DNA from: Escherichia phage BRET
Sequence record: MK165087.1
Strand: one strand, 5' to 3'
DNA length: 59,550 nt
The notes beneath the pieces were generated by a model. That model saw nothing but the letters and a program-made list of their open reading frames with translations. It made no database searches and was not told where the DNA came from. Positions 24,305 to 37,644 of this stretch are shown here, one piece after another (the stretch's first letter is position 1; each line of letters starts with the position of its first letter). A program made the position numbers and the translations under genes.

Positions 24305-26278
24305 TTAAGCGGCGTATGCGAGTTTTTCCAGCAATTTTTCCGCTTTAGCTATGTACACTTCGTGGTTGAGATCCGGCGGCAATTGATCGGTGAGTTCCAT
24401 CATGGGTTTACCCCCTGCTGTCTTACCGACACGACCACCACTCTTGACTATCAGTATTTCAGGTACTTCCTCTTTTGTATAATACCAACGAACAACTTTA
24501 CCTAGTGGCTCGCTATTCCATGCAGCGCCACCGTTAGCTGTCTTAATACAAACAAACTTACGAATGTCCTGACACTCTGTGATAGTTTTAGCAATTGGTG
24601 TGCCGTCACGGAGGAGATTAACCACAGCATCCATAATGATCTCACCTTCCGCGTTCTTAGCAAGGCCAGTCTCTGCGAACCAACCTTTACGCTTGGCTTT
24701 ACCATCCGCCTTAATTGCGACGTAGTTGTTAACGTTTGCAGAGTTAAGACGCAGGTACTGGTTCAGTTCCATTTCAAAGCCAGTTGTCTCTTCCCACCAC
24801 TTGATGATATCAGTCATTAATTGCTTCTTAGCTTTGCAAGGTTTAATAACGATACCATCTGTGTTAGCACTAACGACCTGGATACCATTAAGCTCCAGTG
24901 TTTCAATGAGCATAAGTAGAGCTAACTGACCTGTGAGCGTAGTCTGGATAATAAGGTGTGGTGCATACAGGATAGAGAACGGTGAACCGAACTTACCATA
25001 GGAACCGTTGATAACGATCTTAAGAGTTTGTGCGGTCTTATCGTCATGAGCCATCTTAGCTGCAATACGTCGTTCTACGATCTTAACGAAGATATCTATA
25101 AAGCGTGGGCCCAGGTGTTCAGGATACAGTTGCTGGTTAATGATACAGATTGGGTAGTACGATGTTACGTCAGCATCCCACATCTCTTCATCTTCAGACG
25201 GTACAATCTCCATTAACTCTTCGCACGAGTGCAGACCACCGATGCCCATGTTGTAAGTTGTCTGGTTGATTGTAAACTTCAAAGAGTTCATTGTAGATGG
25301 TTGCTTAATTTTACCATCTTCTGCAACTCGGAAGTAACTGTCAAGCACCACCTGAAATACCGACTTCATTAGTGGCGTTTGGAAACCTAACCACACTGGA
25401 GGATTGTATCTAAAGGTTCTACCGACTTCCACCATACCCTTCTGTGGCACGAAGCCCAGCATTTCCTTCATCTCATGACGAATTACAGCTTCTGCAATCT
25501 GTGCGTCAGATTTAGAGCGAAGGTCTACTTTATACTCTTCACTCATAATCTCACGTAGATGGATCTGCTCTTCCAGCGAGTTAAACAGAGCCATTGTTGT
25601 ATCAAGGTCGTTAATACAGTAGAAGCGCACAATAGCAATCTGTTCTATGGACAGCGCCCAATGCGGTGGGAACGGTAAGTCCTGGAGCTTCTGCATGTGC
25701 ATACGGCCACCGTACAGCTTCAGTGAACCGAAGCCAGGAGCTACTTCTTGAACGTCAATGTGGTCAATCCAAAACTGTTTCACACCAAAACTGTTAAGAA
25801 CGTCCCACGGAGCCCACTCTTCCTGGATCATCCTGTCACTTGCTTCTTTCAACTTGTCGACAGTCAGTCCAGCAATGGCAAGGAATGACATCGTGTTATC
25901 GTAGTTTCTTGAGTTGAAACCAACGGTACGAAAGTTCTTCATTATCCATTCGTACTTTTCCGTGTCAAGTGTCTGACCAGCAGTCATTTCTAGATAATAA
26001 ACCTTACCGAACTTAACCCCTTTGAACGCCACAAGAAAATAGTTCTTATAGCATTCAATATCGTATACGAACGTTTCTTGTGCAAAATACATCTCCACTA
26101 ACTCACCGTCTGTCATACGCGGATCGTTAGCTGCAAAACGCATTGCTGCATCAAGACCTGGAAGGTAGTCCGGACGCTCCCATACCATTTCAACTGGTTG
26201 ACGTTTTACTTTCTGTTTCTTCTCTTTCTTAGCGGGAGGTAAATCCTCCCAAAAGAAACCAATAGCATCTTTTCTCAT
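24305..26278 (-). CDS. DNA polymerase (family A-like, with 3'-5' exonuclease motif)
   Basis: YDIECY (exo I-like), RRIAAK...NGSYGKFG (motif B-like), NTDG. Confidence 0.7.
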   Translation of the reverse strand: MRKDAIGFFWEDLPPAKKEKKQKVKRQPVEMVWERPDYLPGLDAAMRFAANDPRMTDGELVEMYFAQETFVYDIECYKNYFLVAFKGVKFGKVYYLEMTAGQTLDTEKYEWIMKNFRTVGFNSRNYDNTMSFLAIAGLTVDKLKEASDRMIQEEWAPWDVLNSFGVKQFWIDHIDVQEVAPGFGSLKLYGGRMHMQKLQDLPFPPHWALSIEQIAIVRFYCINDLDTTMALFNSLEEQIHLREIMSEEYKVDLRSKSDAQIAEAVIRHEMKEMLGFVPQKGMVEVGRTFRYNPPVWLGFQTPLMKSVFQVVLDSYFRVAEDGKIKQPSTMNSLKFTINQTTYNMGIGGLHSCEELMEIVPSEDEEMWDADVTSYYPICIINQQLYPEHLGPRFIDIFVKIVERRIAAKMAHDDKTAQTLKIVINGSYGKFGSPFSILYAPHLIIQTTLTGQLALLMLIETLELNGIQVVSANTDGIVIKPCKAKKQLMTDIIKWWEETTGFEMELNQYLRLNSANVNNYVAIKADGKAKRKGWFAETGLAKNAEGEIIMDAVVNLLRDGTPIAKTITECQDIRKFVCIKTANGGAAWNSEPLGKVVRWYYTKEEVPEILIVKSGGRVGKTAGGKPMMELTDQLPPDLNHEVYIAKAEKLLEKLAYAA

Positions 26279-27267
26279 AGACGAAATCCTACAATTACCC
26301 CACGTAGATTTTCACCATAAAAAATAATAGGAGTTGAAAGACCCCTTTCGTCCTTTTCATTGAAACGAGAGGCATCCCAGTCCGTTGCAAGTCCTTTCAA
26401 CTGCATAATAAGATCTATATTATACACGCCAATTGACTTGGATTCACGGAACATTGCACTAGCACCATCCAACTCGTTGTAATGTGTGCGTACAACACCA
26501 TTCTCCATGTAAATACGCCCATCCCGCTCACAGAACGGTTTTATCTTTTCTAAGCAATTAAAAAGCTCAGTATCAAGCGTATAAACGTCGGACCCCTTTT
26601 CTGTACGCTCAATTATCTTATCAATATTAGGCCACTTTAATTCCAGTAATTGTGTACGCAACCAGCAACCGTCTTCGTAATGGAATGTCATACTGGTATC
26701 TGTACATTGAATTCTTACTGGTGGCTTTTTAATGCGCAATAATTCTTTGATGGCCATACGTGGTACAACACAATCGACAGGGAATACAGCACCGAACCAA
26801 TATTGTATAATGCTGGCGTTGTTAGTCGCGTACATGCTGCCCTGTTTTACCAGCACGCCGCAAGACCACGGGCGGGAAGCATCGTCGCTTATAAACGGCG
26901 TCACGCGGCTTAAACCGTTAAGAAAAAGCTGACCGTCTATTTCGTGAATCGTTCCTTCTGGCTCTACGTGTGCAGTTGGTTTCTGAAGAGTATCTACACT
27001 AACCTTAAAGCCACCAGACTTAATGCTCAACTTACCGTTCGCTAACATTGTCATCTGTACAGCTTCGTCACATGCTGCAATAGCCTTGAGCATCGGTTCA
27101 GCTTTCGGTGTACAGTCAATGTTCAGTGGTACTGGGCTACACAATGAAATAGTTCCGTTGAACCCGCGAACAGTACCATCAACAATACGGAAGTGAGTTA
27201 AACCTTCCTGGAGTTCTTTCTTAGCTACAGAACCCTGAACAAACTTTAAAGCATCAAGTAAATCCAT
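26275..27267 (-). CDS. putative sliding clamp-like protein
   Basis: 330 aa, translationally coupled to the polymerase; N-terminus loosely resembles beta-clamp. Confidence 0.35.
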   Translation of the reverse strand: MDLLDALKFVQGSVAKKELQEGLTHFRIVDGTVRGFNGTISLCSPVPLNIDCTPKAEPMLKAIAACDEAVQMTMLANGKLSIKSGGFKVSVDTLQKPTAHVEPEGTIHEIDGQLFLNGLSRVTPFISDDASRPWSCGVLVKQGSMYATNNASIIQYWFGAVFPVDCVVPRMAIKELLRIKKPPVRIQCTDTSMTFHYEDGCWLRTQLLELKWPNIDKIIERTEKGSDVYTLDTELFNCLEKIKPFCERDGRIYMENGVVRTHYNELDGASAMFRESKSIGVYNIDLIMQLKGLATDWDASRFNEKDERGLSTPIIFYGENLRGVIVGFRL

Positions 27268-27275
27268 AAGTAACC

Positions 27276-28229
27276 TTACTCGTCAAATAAATCCTGGAGA
27301 CGTTCGTTGAACTTCCCATTGTGGTTAGCAAGAATCATAGCGTTGACCACACCATACGCCCACAAATTGTATGCAGCGCGTGATTCATATATTGTTGAAA
27401 GACGTTCGTATGTAAAACCTGACTCCTCTAAGTAGCGTAGAACGTTGTTCTGTTCTATTTCTGAAAGGTTGCAAATATGCTGCCCTTGATAGTGACGTGA
27501 CGGCGATTTTTCGGATACCTGCATTGGGCCCCACTTTGGAGTTTCAATAGCACCAAACGCCGCAGATTGAATCCAGGAGGATGAGTCACAGGAGTACCAC
27601 GGGTAACGCTCCATAAGTGGACGGGACGTAATACCAAATCCGTGAACTTTAATCTTAGCTCGTCCACTACCGTCTACAAGGTGCTTATCCCATACCCTGT
27701 CCAACCATACCTGGAGTTGTTGTGTACTCGCTCCAACAAGACCACCGAGAGTGATATATTCATAATTTCGTACATAATGGTCCAGGTACTCAAAAGGTTC
27801 ACCGGCGTGGAAGCACGGTAAAGGTCTTACGCCTCTGGCTTCCATTTCTTCCTGGTTACGCCACGTTTGAAGTGGATCACCGATACCATCGAGTACGGAC
27901 GCCATGAGTGATCCATCTTCCACACGAATGATATCTATGTTTCGTTTGATGTAATCACAGTATTCTTTAACTGATAACGTAACTCCCAAAGTGTAAGCTG
28001 AGAACGCTCCGGAGTCGAGGAATATCTTGGCCCCATCGGCACGCATGGCATCAACATACGATTGCTTTCCAACGTAGTGCCATGATTCAAGAATGTTTGG
28101 AATATTCTCGACAACACGTTTTTCTTGTTCATTGAGTTTGACATAGCGGTTCATTCCTGGTTTATAGCTGTTCGTATATACGGCAGCCATATAAATCTGA
28201 AAGGTATAGTCGATATCTTGTCTGTGCAT
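27276..28229 (-). CDS. dpdA: DpdA-like DNA guanine transglycosylase (TGT superfamily)
   Basis: LDSGAFS TGT-type motif, about 317 aa; next to 7-deazaguanine synthesis genes. Confidence 0.7.
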   Translation of the reverse strand: MHRQDIDYTFQIYMAAVYTNSYKPGMNRYVKLNEQEKRVVENIPNILESWHYVGKQSYVDAMRADGAKIFLDSGAFSAYTLGVTLSVKEYCDYIKRNIDIIRVEDGSLMASVLDGIGDPLQTWRNQEEMEARGVRPLPCFHAGEPFEYLDHYVRNYEYITLGGLVGASTQQLQVWLDRVWDKHLVDGSGRAKIKVHGFGITSRPLMERYPWYSCDSSSWIQSAAFGAIETPKWGPMQVSEKSPSRHYQGQHICNLSEIEQNNVLRYLEESGFTYERLSTIYESRAAYNLWAYGVVNAMILANHNGKFNERLQDLFDE

Positions 28230-28298: not shown

Positions 28299-28898
28299 TT
28301 ACTTTTTACACGCTTCAAGAAATTCTCGACGCCATGTGTCACCGTGCATGGTGTGATGATAGCCATTGTTTATATCGGTTGCCCCACGGAACGCTTTAGT
28401 AATGGTTGAGCTCCCGCACACCTGCTTAACGCCGCGCGACTCCATACACATATGCTTGGCGTCAATATAAACACACACAGCTTTCGGGTCCAAGTGCTCT
28501 ACGATGGCATCTGCAATTTGGTTAGTCAGACGCTCTTGGACTTGCAAGCGACGGCTAAAAGCATCTACGACGCGAGACAGTTTAGAAAGCCCAACAATTT
28601 TCCCATTTGGTACATATCCCACAACAGCACGACCGATAATGGGAGCCATATGATGCTCACAATGGCTATAAACTGGAATATCGCGGACGATGACCATTTC
28701 ATTACAGTTTTCCCCACCATCTTCAAAAGTCTTAAACAGGGATGCGATATCTACATCGTAACCGCCGAACCATGTCTCAAATGCTTTAGCGACACGTTCA
28801 GGTGTTTCCTGTAGTCCACCACGCAAAGTCGGCGACGCATGGTCTTCAATATTAAACAACAGAGAAGTGACGGCGTCTTTTACAGCTTGTTTATTCAT
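28299..28898 (-). CDS. folE: GTP cyclohydrolase I
   Basis: CEHH motif and T-fold pattern (PVYSHCEHHMAPIIG). Confidence 0.85.
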   Translation of the reverse strand: MNKQAVKDAVTSLLFNIEDHASPTLRGGLQETPERVAKAFETWFGGYDVDIASLFKTFEDGGENCNEMVIVRDIPVYSHCEHHMAPIIGRAVVGYVPNGKIVGLSKLSRVVDAFSRRLQVQERLTNQIADAIVEHLDPKAVCVYIDAKHMCMESRGVKQVCGSSTITKAFRGATDINNGYHHTMHGDTWRREFLEACKK

Positions 28899-28924: not shown

Positions 28925-29434
28925 TTATTTGCAATAGTTAACATGGCATTTGGACGTTTCTTCAATGGTACATTCTACCAGTTCAACACCATACTCGTCA
29001 AGAAGTTGTGGGCCAATTACGTCAACCATATATGCAGCTAAGTTTTCCGCAGTAGGGTTGAACGGTAAAGATACCAGCGAGTTGTCAAAGTCCCTTACAT
29101 CGTGACCAGTAGTTTCGTCACAAAGTTCACAATCAACCTGAAGAGCTTTGATCAAAGGATCTTCTTCCCAATGCAGGAACTTATGATCCCAGTTATCTTC
29201 CAACCATTGGCAGAGTGTAGTTTTAACCACACTGAAGTCAATCACGCGCCCAACGCTGTCCAGACCGTCCTCAACCAGCTTTCCTCGCGTCACTACTTTT
29301 CCGCATCCATGTTTCGGCGCAACTTTAAAATGAAACTTATAGTTGTGACCATGCAGGTGGCGACATTTACTTTCATGCCCTACGACACGATGCCCAGCGC
29401 AAATTTCATGTGAACGAATTACTGTATAGCTCAT
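28925..29434 (-). CDS. queD: 6-carboxy-5,6,7,8-tetrahydropterin synthase
   Basis: CxxHRxxGHESKCRHLHGHNYK zinc-binding signature. Confidence 0.8.
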   Translation of the reverse strand: MSYTVIRSHEICAGHRVVGHESKCRHLHGHNYKFHFKVAPKHGCGKVVTRGKLVEDGLDSVGRVIDFSVVKTTLCQWLEDNWDHKFLHWEEDPLIKALQVDCELCDETTGHDVRDFDNSLVSLPFNPTAENLAAYMVDVIGPQLLDEYGVELVECTIEETSKCHVNYCK

Positions 29435-29763
29435 TAGAATTTCTCCGCGTGTTTTTCGTATGTGTTATTGATCACAGTGAGAAAGGACTGGTCCCACTCG
29501 CTCCACAGGACTTTGCCCATACTTACTGCTTCAATGTGAAAAGTATTTGTGGCATCATCTTGAAATAATTTAATGGTGACGTCTGATCCATTCTGGATAT
29601 ATCCCATCAACGCACGTATCTTATCACCTACATCAATGTGTGGATTAAACTGAGGAACTGCTTCTTCAACCGCATCAATTAAATCATAAGCCTGTTGCGG
29701 AATCGGATTACCGAAGCATTTGTGGGCTATACCAGTCTTTGCCGAATTGCTCAATTTATTCAT
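29434..29763 (-). CDS. hypothetical protein embedded in the deazaguanine cluster
   Basis: 109-aa ORF translationally coupled between queD and gat-queC. Confidence 0.5.
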   Translation of the reverse strand: MNKLSNSAKTGIAHKCFGNPIPQQAYDLIDAVEEAVPQFNPHIDVGDKIRALMGYIQNGSDVTIKLFQDDATNTFHIEAVSMGKVLWSEWDQSFLTVINNTYEKHAEKF

Positions 29764-31179
29764 TTACGCCTCGTTTTCGTATTTAATAACTTCTTGTGCG
29801 TTATTAATATTAAACGCAGTCCGGCGCATCATGCAAGGTCCGCAAGTACCGCAATGCAAATCCCCGTTACGGTAACAGCTCCAGGTGTGCTCCAACGGGG
29901 CCCCTAAACGCAGACCTGTAGCGACAATTTCGTGCTTCATTAAGTTACCTACTGGCATGAGCACTTCAACGCGCTTACCGTCCCCTACAGCGAACGGTAA
30001 CACCTGATTAAAGCGGTTAATAAACTCAGGTTCGTTGTCCGGATAGGCTCCAGCTTCTTCTAGGTTGTTACCAAGAACAATATAGTCGAAACCGTTAGCT
30101 TCTGCGTATGCAGTAGCAACAGAAAGCATCACAAGGTTACGAGCTGGAACCCATTCATGCGCGAACTCAGCGCCTTCTTCACCGCCCGCAATTGCAGCAT
30201 CTTGGTCAAATAACGGGCTATCTTTTTTATCGTAAATTGGGATTGGGAATTCAACTAACGGAACTTCCATCACTTCCGCAATTTTACGAATAGCCTTCAA
30301 CTCGTTAGTTTCTGCACGACAACCATACTGGAAGTTAATTAAAGTGACATCTAACCCATTGGACTTACACATCTGAGCTGCTACTGTGCTGTCCATACCA
30401 CCACTGGCGACAACTAACGCGCGTTGAGTCTGCTTATTTGGAATAAGATCAACTTCATTGCATACATCGGTCGATGTGACCACATTGCAGGTGTAAGGCT
30501 TCAGCATTTGTTTAATAGCACGGGATGGTAGCATATCTTCCTGGCTGGCGAAATACATACCAGTATCAGTCTTACCAATCCAGATTGGACGATAATTACA
30601 TGCTGTAAACACACATCCTGGAAAGGAATCATGTGTTGCAAGGATTGCGAAGCTACCTTTCAATTTGCGAATAACTTCATGAAACACACTGTACAGGTAA
30701 TTAAAGTCAGACAAACACATTTCATCTGCTGAAAGTGTACATTCTGCTAACTGTTCAACGATCGCAGCACTATCAATCTTAGTCTGTAGGGCATAGGTAC
30801 GAAGGTCTTTATCGTTCGCAATAGTACCGTTATGAACAATAGTCCAACCATCCATATGATACGGTTGCTGGTCCCACTCATTCTTGTCAACGACCCACTC
30901 TGTAGTCGGTTCAGCGCGAGCGTTACCAATCATTGTGAAGCTACCAATAGCTCCAGCATGAGATACAATGCGCCCAACTTTAACAAGACGTTCCAGCGAT
31001 GTTTTCTTACCGACACTAACAATACGTTGCGGGTGCATACTGTGGTCACCATGCGTAAAGCGTACACCAAGACCATCACGACCACGGTTGATACTAGCTT
31101 TAATAAGATCCTCAATGTCGTTACGGATAATAAGACTTTCAGGTTGACCGTTAGTAATAACACCAAAGATAGAGCACAT
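29764..31179 (-). CDS. queC: Gat-QueC (class II glutamine amidotransferase fused to QueC)
   Basis: N-terminal MCSIFGV (Ntn Cys), SGGMDS PP-loop, C-terminal CxxxC..CxxC zinc motif; AGGAAGG RBS before internal ATG (track ORF extends to 31278). Confidence 0.8.
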   Translation of the reverse strand: MCSIFGVITNGQPESLIIRNDIEDLIKASINRGRDGLGVRFTHGDHSMHPQRIVSVGKKTSLERLVKVGRIVSHAGAIGSFTMIGNARAEPTTEWVVDKNEWDQQPYHMDGWTIVHNGTIANDKDLRTYALQTKIDSAAIVEQLAECTLSADEMCLSDFNYLYSVFHEVIRKLKGSFAILATHDSFPGCVFTACNYRPIWIGKTDTGMYFASQEDMLPSRAIKQMLKPYTCNVVTSTDVCNEVDLIPNKQTQRALVVASGGMDSTVAAQMCKSNGLDVTLINFQYGCRAETNELKAIRKIAEVMEVPLVEFPIPIYDKKDSPLFDQDAAIAGGEEGAEFAHEWVPARNLVMLSVATAYAEANGFDYIVLGNNLEEAGAYPDNEPEFINRFNQVLPFAVGDGKRVEVLMPVGNLMKHEIVATGLRLGAPLEHTWSCYRNGDLHCGTCGPCMMRRTAFNINNAQEVIKYENEA

Positions 31180-31180
31180 A

Positions 31181-31930
31181 TTATTTACCTTCCTTAACCA
31201 TTTCAATTTCACGCTCAACGGATGCAATAATGTCGTTGAGGTCTTCCAGTAAGTCCTTATGACCGCGCTCACCCGCACACAGCAATTTCTTCAGTGCATG
31301 TTGCATGGGCCCACTGGTTACATTGAATGCTTTAATTACGTCGTACACGTCAACCCATACATCAATTTCGATTGGGCTACCATTAATGTCATGAGATTCA
31401 AAAGTTTTAATTTTGCGCATATATTTATTCGGACGTGGAGCTTTAATCTCCTGGATACAACCCTTATTAATAAATGCTTCATTAACGAATAGTTCCGGCT
31501 CACCTTCTTTGTTACGATCAACGTTAAAGACATTCGTAAGTAGATCGTCCATGATACCAGCTAATTTTTCGGAAGAAGTTTTATGATTTTTAACCATCTC
31601 TTCCGCTTTCTGTGTTCCGCTAACAGAAGCACTAATGCGCCATTTGTAAAGCGCATTACGCGGAGGCGTTACATGCGTGTTGTAGACTGTCTTTAAGCTC
31701 ATAAGATCACTTCCATCCATACCTTCAACAAAGACAGTGAGTTCGGGACTAATATCGTTCAGAACATCTACTAAATATCCTTCTCGAATTACAGATGCAA
31801 GAGCTGTATTGGACGCCGCCTGGGAAACTGTGGTCACATAATGTTTTACAAATCCGTCTTCATCAAACAGACACTGGTTTAACACATCTTGTGGAACAAT
31901 TTGACCGAGTAATTGAATATGCTTATTCAT
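31181..31930 (-). CDS. hypothetical protein embedded in the deazaguanine cluster
   Basis: 249-aa ORF between queE and gat-queC, stop 1 nt from the gat-queC start. Confidence 0.5.
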   Translation of the reverse strand: MNKHIQLLGQIVPQDVLNQCLFDEDGFVKHYVTTVSQAASNTALASVIREGYLVDVLNDISPELTVFVEGMDGSDLMSLKTVYNTHVTPPRNALYKWRISASVSGTQKAEEMVKNHKTSSEKLAGIMDDLLTNVFNVDRNKEGEPELFVNEAFINKGCIQEIKAPRPNKYMRKIKTFESHDINGSPIEIDVWVDVYDVIKAFNVTSGPMQHALKKLLCAGERGHKDLLEDLNDIIASVEREIEMVKEGK

Positions 31931-31964
31931 AACGATTTACCTTATTAGTTGAATATGTATAACT

Positions 31965-32729
31965 TTACTCTACACCTAAATATTTGTGAATCTGCAACTG
32001 CACGATGTAATTATGCTTCATTGCGTATTTAACAACAGCTTGAGCGTTTGCTTTGTTAGCAACGTCATCCTGTTCATCCATAGGTTGAAGATAGATATCA
32101 CCTTTAAAGTGTACCGGAGGACGTGCGATAAATGGTGTTGCACGGTGATCCAGTGCCTGCAACGGTAATCCATCTTCCTCGTTGACGTTTCCGCTTTTCA
32201 TTACATATTTGAAAGCGTCTGCTCTGGCGGAAACACTAGGATGAATCTTTGCTGCCTTAGGACTACATACTACCACACAACTATAGTTGAGTTCACGCGG
32301 GATAGGCATAGTTCCGTTAGTTTCAACCTGTACACGGTATCCTTTCATATCAATAAGATAGTTGATAAAATTAACAACTTCAGGTTGACGGAAAGGTTCG
32401 CCACCAGTAATAACAACTAATTCAGTCTTAGCTTCACCAGTAACACGGACAATCTCTTTCCAGATATCGGTATGACTCATCTTCTTACGATTGGACGTAT
32501 AGTTTGTATCACATCCTGGGCATTGCAGATTACAACCAGCTAAACGAACGAACACGGCAGGTTGACCACAAAACGGGCCTTCACCTTGAATGGTATGAAA
32601 AATGGAATGTACGTCAAGAATACCACGTTCACGAACTAACTTCTCAGGATCCTGAGTATTAATAATTTTCATATGATTTCCAAATTTGGCTTGAGCCCAG
32701 TGGTGGGCGATAATGGCTTGTGCAAACAT
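31965..32729 (-). CDS. queE: 7-carboxy-7-deazaguanine synthase (radical SAM)
   Basis: CNLQCPGCDT CxxxCxxC cluster, IQGEGPFCGQ; start likely the internal ATG with GAGG RBS. Confidence 0.8.
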   Translation of the reverse strand: MFAQAIIAHHWAQAKFGNHMKIINTQDPEKLVRERGILDVHSIFHTIQGEGPFCGQPAVFVRLAGCNLQCPGCDTNYTSNRKKMSHTDIWKEIVRVTGEAKTELVVITGGEPFRQPEVVNFINYLIDMKGYRVQVETNGTMPIPRELNYSCVVVCSPKAAKIHPSVSARADAFKYVMKSGNVNEEDGLPLQALDHRATPFIARPPVHFKGDIYLQPMDEQDDVANKANAQAVVKYAMKHNYIVQLQIHKYLGVE

Positions 32730-32797
32730 TTGAACCTCGGGGTAAGATAACAAAGGGGCAGTAAATGCCCCTTCTGAGTTTCCGAAGTGTCTACAGA

Positions 32798-33622
32798 TTA
32801 CTCTGCAGATTTCTGAGACGGAATTTCTACGTTAGCGGCCGCCTGTGCAATATTAGCAGGTACTGGAACTGATACGCGACCAGTAATGCCCATGTATTTT
32901 TTCCAGCGAGCGTATTCAGCTTTGACGTTCGCTTCGTTCAGGCCTTTGTCCAGTGCAACCGGCAGAACGTAGCTGATCGGTGCAGTCTGGCCCAGCTCCA
33001 GGGTGACAGCGTCAAAGATATCCCATGCAGCACGGCACAGAGTACCAACACCAGGCTTACGAATACCGTTCTGTTCCGGCTCTTTCTTAGCTTCACGTTC
33101 TGCTGCTTTACGAGCGCGCTCTTCGTCCTGCAGACGTTTCTTCTCAGCGCGTTCTGCGTCACGTTTCGCTTTTTCAGCGGCCTTAGTGGCTTCGCGGGCA
33201 GCGGATACACGACCTTTAATATCTTTCAGAGTGGATTCAATGCTAGAAACCAGATCTTCAGATGCTGCAACGGCAGTTTTCAGTTGATCGTTGTCTTTGA
33301 CTTTACGTGCTGCTGCTTTAACAGCTTTCAGACCTTCTTTAGCGGTCTTCAGTTGAGCGGTAACTACCCCTTCAACTGCTTTAACTTCGTCCAGCAACGA
33401 ACCTTCGTGCAGGGTGTCGAACTGTTCTTTAACAGCGGACACAGCACCTTCGATCACATTGTAACCGGCAGTGGCTTCGTTCAATGCGGCGTCAACTTTA
33501 GCCTGCAATTCACGTGCTGCTTTTTCTTCAGCTTCACGTTTTTTCTTTGCTTCAGCTTCTTTTGCTGCTTTCTTTGCTGCTTCTTCTGCTTCCAGTTGTT
33601 CTGGAGTTTTCTCTTTAGCCAT
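32798..33622 (-). CDS. Lys/Ala/Glu-rich coiled-coil protein
   Basis: About 200 aa of KAAEK-type low-complexity helix plus a conserved-looking C-terminal domain; locally GC-rich. Confidence 0.5.
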   Translation of the reverse strand: MAKEKTPEQLEAEEAAKKAAKEAEAKKKREAEEKAARELQAKVDAALNEATAGYNVIEGAVSAVKEQFDTLHEGSLLDEVKAVEGVVTAQLKTAKEGLKAVKAAARKVKDNDQLKTAVAASEDLVSSIESTLKDIKGRVSAAREATKAAEKAKRDAERAEKKRLQDEERARKAAEREAKKEPEQNGIRKPGVGTLCRAAWDIFDAVTLELGQTAPISYVLPVALDKGLNEANVKAEYARWKKYMGITGRVSVPVPANIAQAAANVEIPSQKSAE

Positions 33623-36693: not shown

Positions 36694-37644
36694 TTACTCA
36701 CCGTAATAATCTGCTGCTTCGTATTGACCACATGCTGCCATCTGGTCTTCCTTCGTTAATACACCTTCGGTTCCATCTGTGATGTATGCAGTAGCAGAAG
36801 CTACTTTGATTGCACATCTCCAGGTTCCATCTTCGAGCGGATAAGAGTGCTTACAGGTGCGGCAGTTAACTTCAGGCATCTTGTTGTTGTGACATACCGC
36901 TTTGTGGTCACACCATTTGCATTTATAGTAAGATTTACTTTCATTGATCTTAGGTGGTGGGCATTCCGCCAGTGCAATTACAAATCCACGGTCTTTGTAG
37001 CGTTCTGCTGTTTCTTTATCAAACGGTACAAGCTCTGCCCAAATCTCGTCCGTGTTCTTATTAACTGCAATATAAAGAGCGGCTGGGAGCCCATAATACA
37101 ACATGTATTCCTGCATCTGAACATAGTGCTCCCATTTGGATTCCATCACACCATTAACGACAAGTTTCTTGAACGAATCGTTATTGTGCGTTTTCATCTC
37201 CGTCAAGATTGGTGTAGAAGGTTGTGGCATGTCGGGGCAACCAATGACAATACCATCTATCGCAGAGCCAAAGTGTCCGTTGAGATAGCTAACTCTATAC
37301 TGGCTGCCATTTTCGTCTTGTTGGATGACTTGCATACCGGCGGTAAGTAATAAGGCCACGAAGCGACCTTCTTCAAGATGCCCGCGATTGAATAGACGTA
37401 AGGTTTTACCGTTAAAGTGCGGTTTTGTTGCCCATCGCCATCCGTAGAAGATTGCTCTGCTACACTCTTGCCCGATAAGACTAATCCCAAGATGCGAACG
37501 GAATCCGCCATCCCCCTCTCGATATGCGTCTTCAATATGCGGTAATACTTTTCCGAGCCATACTCTGTAAGCGGATCCTTGATCTCGTTCAATACAGTCA
37601 TTGAATAACTCCATTGTCTTAGTAGCAGGATAAAAATGTGGCAT
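36694..37644 (-). CDS. PD-(D/E)XK exonuclease with C-terminal Cys cluster (Cas4/RecB-like)
   Basis: AIDGIVIG...LTEMKTH motif and a C-terminal 4-Cys cluster. Confidence 0.6.
   Translation of the reverse strand: MPHFYPATKTMELFNDCIERDQGSAYRVWLGKVLPHIEDAYREGDGGFRSHLGISLIGQECSRAIFYGWRWATKPHFNGKTLRLFNRGHLEEGRFVALLLTAGMQVIQQDENGSQYRVSYLNGHFGSAIDGIVIGCPDMPQPSTPILTEMKTHNNDSFKKLVVNGVMESKWEHYVQMQEYMLYYGLPAALYIAVNKNTDEIWAELVPFDKETAERYKDRGFVIALAECPPPKINESKSYYKCKWCDHKAVCHNNKMPEVNCRTCKHSYPLEDGTWRCAIKVASATAYITDGTEGVLTKEDQMAACGQYEAADYYGE

Follow-up and report, generated by a model that had tools for sequence, protein, structure and literature searches.

The closest described relatives of the enzyme analysed here are the Gat-QueC proteins of Nonagvirus phages, of which the phage 9g enzyme has been studied in E. 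coli. Expression of dpdA alone yields only dPreQ0, at about 0.03–0.3% of Gs, whereas 9g dpdA and gat-queC together yield dG+ at about 9–18% of Gs in plasmid DNA (Hutinet et al. 2019, PMC6884629); the addition of Gat-QueC raises modification about 50–500-fold over the level with only DpdA. DNA from cells expressing both genes resists EcoRI, and gat-queC without dpdA gives no DNA modification (PMC6884629). dG+ is still made in a ΔqueC host carrying both genes (5.5–9.2% of Gs) but is lost in a ΔqueD host, and E. coli ΔqueC does not regain queuosine when given 9g gat-queC (PMC6884629). Among phages, substituting Gat-QueC for QueC shifts the modification from dPreQ0 to dG+, and the sister Seuratviruses with plain QueC carry dPreQ0 (PMC6884629, PMC10516641, PMC8594841); the account of Gat-QueC itself is repeated in PMC10516641 and PMC8594841.

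Other known systems differ from the phage enzyme in substrate, product or fold. The Gat-QueC of Crenarchaeota/Thermoproteota is credited with the same archaeosine product (Phillips et al. 2012, as cited in PMC6884629 and PMC5699537), an account also given in the 2016 review PMC5699537, but the archaeal protein serves position 15 of tRNA together with arcTGT and the phage protein serves DNA together with DpdA. Canonical QueC (EC 6.3.4.20), as in B. subtilis (3bl5) and phage CAjan, is without an amidotransferase (GATase) domain and its product ends at preQ0, giving dPreQ0 in CAjan; in this sister genus a 240-aa QueC and a preQ0 transporter fill the slot that corresponds to gat-queC. ArcS/ArcS2 and QueF-L carry out the same net reaction from preQ0 to G+ (PMC6884629, PMC10516641, PMC5699537), but their folds are unrelated to Gat-QueC.

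Here we analysed a 59,550-nucleotide stretch of DNA from Escherichia phage BRET (MK165087.1; hereafter the window) in which a sequence-only reading had singled out a Gat-QueC fusion gene. This gene very probably codes for Gat-QueC, which makes archaeosine (G+) in Nonagvirus phages, and its sequence holds nothing that speaks against this assignment. Both the enzyme and the phage genus have been characterised before; the protein is one more near-identical member, and in this sense is already known.

The gat-queC gene and its cluster in phage BRET

The gene lies within a set of minus-strand genes for 7-deazaguanine synthesis and insertion, flanked by replication genes:

24305-26278, minus strand: DNA polymerase
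26275-27267, minus strand: sliding clamp, 99.1% identical to 9g
27276..28229, minus strand: dpdA, DNA guanine transglycosylase inserting the 7-deazaguanine base; 99.4% identical to 9g DpdA; phrog_887, E=3.5e-98
28299..28898, minus strand: folE, GTP cyclohydrolase I, first pathway step; Pfam GTP_cyclohydroI, E=1e-61; NCBIfam FolE above cut-off; 80% identical to 9g
28925..29434, minus strand: queD, 6-carboxytetrahydropterin synthase; Pfam PTPS, E=5.2e-22; 76% identical to 9g QueD
29434-29763, minus strand: 109-aa open reading frame between queD and gat-queC
29764..31179, minus strand: gat-queC, archaeosine/dG+ synthase of 471 aa in which a class-II glutamine amidotransferase is fused to QueC
31188..31195, minus strand: Shine-Dalgarno-like AAGGAAGG, read from the sequence, within the 3′ end of the upstream gene
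31181-31930, minus strand: 249-aa hypothetical protein; phrog_18443; 83% identical to its 9g counterpart
31965..32753, minus strand: queE, radical-SAM 7-carboxy-7-deazaguanine synthase; Pfam Radical_SAM and Fer4_12; beginning at residue 9, 96% identical to 9g QueE

Three observations identify the ATG at 31179 as the real start of gat-queC: AAGGAAGG precedes it at a spacing of 8 nt, it comes one base past the TAA stop of the upstream gene (31181–31183), and the equivalent position is the annotated start in all annotated relatives. The limits 29764–31179 assigned to the gene by the sequence-only reading are therefore exact. The GTG at 31278, at which the mechanically called reading frame begins, was rejected because that start would overlap the upstream gene by 98 nt. 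Translation of the minus-strand frame gives a product of 471 aa with the N-terminus MCSIFGV. For queE, comparison with 9g indicates that the true start is probably the ATG at 32729; QueE models are the best NCBIfam matches to its product, yet score below their cut-offs.

BRET Gat-QueC is 97.2% identical in amino acids, and its gene 95.6% in nucleotides, to the 9g orthologue (AHN84522), with which it shares its 471-aa length, domain architecture and cluster position, as it does with the orthologues of JenK1, JenP1/2, SE1, HdK1 and FritzHoffmann. PHROGs family phrog_10428 matches it from end to end (E=1.5e-287), and a tblastn search of phage genomes found full-length matches in 65 phage records. 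Two of the 14 substitutions relative to 9g are conservative exchanges (V/I and L/I) at the otherwise highly conserved positions 96 and 126, and none affects a listed catalytic residue. Apart from these 14 differences, nothing specific favours an inactive or decaying copy in BRET, which would leave the modification lost or cut to dPreQ0 made from host precursors. We judge such decay extremely improbable: the 471-codon frame is intact and has a good ribosome-binding site, the partner genes are all intact, the protein shares 99.4% identity with its HdK1 counterpart and it belongs to a 90%-identity cluster of 306 members.

Matching DNA also occurs in two bacterial assemblies. A 2923-bp contig of Sulfoacidibacillus thermotolerans (NZ_MPDK01000060.1) has 94–95% DNA identity to window positions 30189–33024, and a 414-bp contig of Dyella japonica (NZ_JPLA01000186.1) has 89% identity to positions 30222–30635. 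Both most likely represent coliphage (Nonagvirus) sequence that contaminated the assemblies rather than true genes of the two bacteria.

The cluster runs in the order QueE, hypothetical protein, Gat-QueC, small open reading frame, QueD, FolE, DpdA, an arrangement shared with phage 9g and the BASEL phage FritzHoffmann, in which the counterpart gene is annotated as 'dPreQ0 and archaeosine synthase Gat-QueC'. gat-queC is thus accompanied by dpdA, folE, queD and queE with no separate queC. A 24-kb segment of the window is 93.5–94.7% identical to JenP1, JenP2, SE1, HdK1 and FritzHoffmann over 72–82% of its length; by nucleotide similarity and synteny, the window is a Nonagvirus (Queuovirinae) genome. 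DpdA had no Pfam or NCBIfam match even at E<=10 and was recognised only by PHROGs (phrog_887), so general-purpose domain libraries miss this signature enzyme.

Several features of the cluster vary. QueD (76%) and FolE (80%) are far more diverged from 9g than DpdA, Gat-QueC and QueE (96–99%), a pattern suggesting that Queuovirinae exchange this segment as a module. Unlike 9g, in which queD and gat-queC abut, BRET carries the 109-aa reading frame between the two genes. Its flanks are identical to Seuratvirus QueD sequences over 36 nt; the phage collection contains no closely related DNA, and neither Pfam nor PHROG matched the frame. The N-terminal 45–49 residues are about 70% identical to a hypothetical protein that PD328 and CAjan encode at this position, and the C-terminal 60 residues about 40–46% identical to hypothetical proteins of Klebsiella and Salmonella phages; the frame has the appearance of an accessory gene, mosaic in make-up, in a slot where the cluster varies. 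The 249-aa hypothetical protein, encoded between gat-queC and queE, is conserved and translationally coupled to gat-queC. Its homologues are almost all Nonagvirus-like, and only its C-terminal ~80 residues (VDVYDV..AFNV...QHALKK.LCAG.RG) are common to more distant proteins; it had no Pfam match even at E<=10, and its AF2 model was poor (pLDDT 53.7). Elsewhere in the window, a 316-aa protein (36694-37644, minus strand) matches the Cas4-domain exonuclease family phrog_1990 (E=7.9e-115) with no Pfam match, in disagreement with the annotation of its 9g counterpart as oxidoreductase-like with a Trm112p domain.

Amidotransferase and QueC domains

The 471-aa protein divides into two enzymatic domains:

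30460..31179, minus strand: N-terminal Ntn (class-II) glutamine amidotransferase domain, residues ~1-240
29806..30432, minus strand: C-terminal QueC (PP-loop ATP pyrophosphatase) domain, residues ~250-458
30388-30405, minus strand: PP-loop SGGMDS, residues 259-264
29833-29877, minus strand: four-Cys cluster C435/C443/C446/C449

Alignments were made of 40 homologues at 52–67% identity, of the N-terminal domain separately and of ten archaeal/bacterial homologues at 39–53% identity. In the N-terminal half, C2, R32-G-R-D35, N86-x-R-A-E-P-T-T-E94, H116-N117-G118 and D136 are invariant in the closer and the archaeal homologues alike. The nucleophile Cys2, encoded at 31174–31176, immediately follows the initiator Met as in class-II amidotransferases, and a profile of the domain aligns to human GFAT1 from Met1-Cys2 onward, so that RGRD falls on RGYD (of RGYDS), the HNG motifs coincide and the conserved Asp matches that of TDTE. 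From structural work on GlmS, we take C2 to be the nucleophile, HNG the oxyanion hole, and RGRD and D136 glutamine-binding residues. The predicted glutamine site, comprising the Arg of RGxD, the Asn-Gly oxyanion hole and the Asp that would bind the α-amino group, is therefore present in Gat-QueC. Library models give the same assignment: Pfam GATase_7 (PF13537) matches residues 97–217 with 28.4 bits (cut-off 25), GATase_6 falls just short of its cut-off, and residues 1–218 align to positions 1–199 of the NCBIfam GlmS model. The Ntn-type N-terminus that the sequence-only reading had described, with Cys straight after Met, is borne out, and a check for an inactive amidotransferase context found none, as Cys2 and the glutamine-site residues are intact.

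The C-terminal half is matched by Pfam QueC (PF06508) over residues 253–458, covering profile positions 1–208 of 210 (E=4.5e-56). PP-loop residues S259, G261, D263 and S264 are invariant in the 40 closer and the archaeal homologues, whereas G260 is invariant in the closer set and conserved in at least 90% once archaeal sequences are added; C435, C443, C446 and C449 are invariant in phage and archaeal homologues alike. S259GGMDS264 and the four Cys align to solved QueC structures, and further conserved motifs of the domain are GAEFAHEWVPARN and EEAGAYPDNE. Judged from its sequence, Gat-QueC contains a complete QueC domain with SGGxDS and four predicted Zn-binding Cys. On the QueC equivalog model TIGR00364 (NCBIfam) the protein scored 150.1 bits against a cut-off of 150.3, a value just below threshold that is consistent with a diverged QueC subfamily. 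The stand-alone QueC of Seuratviruses matches only residues 241–457, at about 28% identity (tblastn), which places the domain boundary at about residues 241–250. The low identity of the CAjan-type protein further indicates that the fusion did not arise recently from the Seuratvirus gene.

An AF2 model of Gat-QueC (pLDDT 87.8, pTM 0.81) gave the following fold comparisons:

GlmS glutaminase domain (1xff): 24.7; 2.3 Å over 212
B. subtilis QueC (3bl5): 18.9; 2.3 Å over 175
Asparagine synthetase B (1ct9): 17.9; 6.1 Å over 220

The earlier description of a complete QueC PP-loop and Zn-binding C-terminus agrees with the Pfam coverage (208/210), SGGMDS, the four Cys and the superposition on B. subtilis QueC, and the domain-boundary alignment that it had proposed as a check resolves GATase and QueC parts that meet at about residues 241–250.

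Two other assignments were rejected. A canonical stand-alone QueC has about 220–240 aa, whereas this protein has 471 aa with an extra N-terminal domain and scores below the cut-off of TIGR00364 (150.1 versus 150.3) and of the E. coli-type QueC model NF008317 (49.6 versus 378; NCBIfam); the failure of the 9g orthologue to complement ΔqueC for queuosine also argues against it (PMC6884629). An asparagine synthetase is not indicated either, as TIGR01536 covered only GATase residues 96–217, at 27.7 bits where the cut-off is 267.1 (NCBIfam). Asparagine synthetase B, which joins an Ntn GATase to a PP-loop synthetase through an ammonia tunnel, is nevertheless a mechanistic analogue, with another synthetase subfamily and substrate.

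Conservation also bears on whether the QueC domain is catalytic. It could instead be a preQ0-binding module, with host QueC making preQ0 and the fusion merely amidating it in the manner of ArcS; the marginal NCBIfam equivalog score, the absence of queuosine rescue by 9g gat-queC in E. coli ΔqueC (PMC6884629) and the mention of host QueC by the Vid5 authors as a possible preQ0 source would all fit such a role. However, the dG+ level is described as unchanged in ΔqueC and is lost in ΔqueD (PMC6884629), the SGGxDS PP-loop and Zn-binding Cys are kept from phages to archaea, and superposition of the domain on B. subtilis QueC gives 2.3 Å, leaving a non-catalytic role very unlikely. Homology to the archaeal Gat-QueC proteins spans residues 1–468 at 39–43% identity, in loci of Sulfolobales, Thermoproteales, Bathyarchaeota and Thaumarchaeota. 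They share all GATase, PP-loop and Zn residues with the phage protein (G260 in at least 90%) and lack a short insertion present in the phage protein at about residues 43–56.

QueC-type enzymes encoded in the window

The sequence-only reading had also held that Gat-QueC is the only QueC-type enzyme present, with no stand-alone QueC or ArcS-like gene. A tblastn search of each domain against all six frames of the whole window found no second QueC or GATase paralogue (next best E ~1), and a Pfam scan of 66 open reading frames of >=73 aa spanning the window found no other member of the QueC, ArcS, QueF/QueF-L, TGT, PP-loop ATPase or GATase families. The sole exception was a marginal QueF match inside FolE, at 27.6 bits against a cut-off of 27.3. 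We rejected a QueF-L gene here and attribute the match to a fold common to FolE and QueF. The window is collinear with the 60.7-kb genome of phage JenP1 from the first bases on and therefore represents an essentially complete phage genome, which makes the absence of a second QueC-type gene meaningful. For the phage genome the earlier statement holds; for the infected cell it does not, since the E. coli host has its own QueC.

The same searches weigh on the possibility that Gat-QueC is a glutamine-dependent preQ0 synthase only, in which the GATase would feed the conversion of 7-carboxy-7-deazaguanine (CDG) through ADG to preQ0, DNA would carry dPreQ0 and any dG+ would have to come from a different enzyme. 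In these searches the window showed no further amidotransferase and no ArcS or QueF-L candidate to supply that step. 9g dpdA and gat-queC moreover yield dG+, not dPreQ0, in E. coli, which has no G+ pathway, and do so in ΔqueC as well (PMC6884629), and it is the plain-QueC Seuratviruses that give dPreQ0. A product limited to preQ0 is accordingly most improbable, and archaeosine synthesis by Gat-QueC is the reading we retain.

Proposed route to archaeosine in phage DNA

In the proposed pathway, FolE, QueD and QueE, encoded by adjacent genes, would turn GTP into CDG. The PP-loop of the C-terminal QueC domain would then draw on ATP to activate first the carboxylate and subsequently the amide, as happens in canonical QueC on its way to the nitrile preQ0. 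The N-terminal domain is predicted to hydrolyse glutamine on Cys2, which removal of the initiator Met would leave at the N-terminus as elsewhere among Ntn amidotransferases, and so to supply ammonia; this ammonia would convert the nitrile, or an activated precursor of it, to the formamidine of G+. DpdA would finally swap guanine in phage DNA for the deazaguanine base. In phage 9g about a quarter of Gs become dG+, which shields the DNA against many restriction enzymes.

The searchable literature yielded no in vitro enzymology of Gat-QueC and no later work settling the order of amidation and insertion. For this reason we infer the chemical steps, namely glutamine hydrolysis on Cys2 and formation of the formamidine from a nitrile or activated amide, and likewise, on the model of asparagine synthetase B, a channel that may carry ammonia from the GATase into the QueC site. 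Genetic data on the orthologue constrain the route. Because dG+ is kept in ΔqueC and lost in ΔqueD, Gat-QueC must convert CDG itself; because queuosine is not rescued in ΔqueC, free preQ0 either is not let go or is not formed as such. The claim of the sequence-only reading that one protein carries out both the ATP-dependent step and the amide-nitrogen transfer thus finds experimental backing in the 97.2%-identical 9g orthologue, which gives dG+ with DpdA (PMC6884629).

How the two steps are ordered can be proposed more tentatively. One route, possible though less likely than not, is that preQ0 is never released: ammonia would attack the adenylated amide within the QueC site, CDG would be converted to the free G+ base, and DpdA would insert G+. 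A free-base route would explain the absence of queuosine rescue, the dG+ level described as unchanged in ΔqueC and the ~50–500-fold gain over DpdA alone. It would also reverse the order that applies to ArcS and QueF-L in tRNA, where preQ0 goes in first and is amidated on the polymer.

The earlier reading had further proposed that this protein determines which deazaguanine derivative enters the DNA. The exchange of QueC for Gat-QueC does switch the modification from dPreQ0 to dG+, but the wording is slightly too strong, as the base inserted may be either G+ itself or preQ0 that is amidated afterwards (PMC6884629, PMC5699537). With that qualification, the inference that a single protein performs both steps and sets the derivative is supported, and it was already published for the 9g orthologue.

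The BRET window adds one more near-identical member to the known Gat-QueC proteins. Work on 9g and its relatives has established that Gat-QueC switches Nonagvirus DNA from preQ0 to archaeosine and that archaeosine in this DNA confers broad resistance to type I and type II restriction enzymes. The enzyme is consequently relevant to phage therapy, to host-range prediction and to the newly described glycosylase defences that target 7-deazaguanines.
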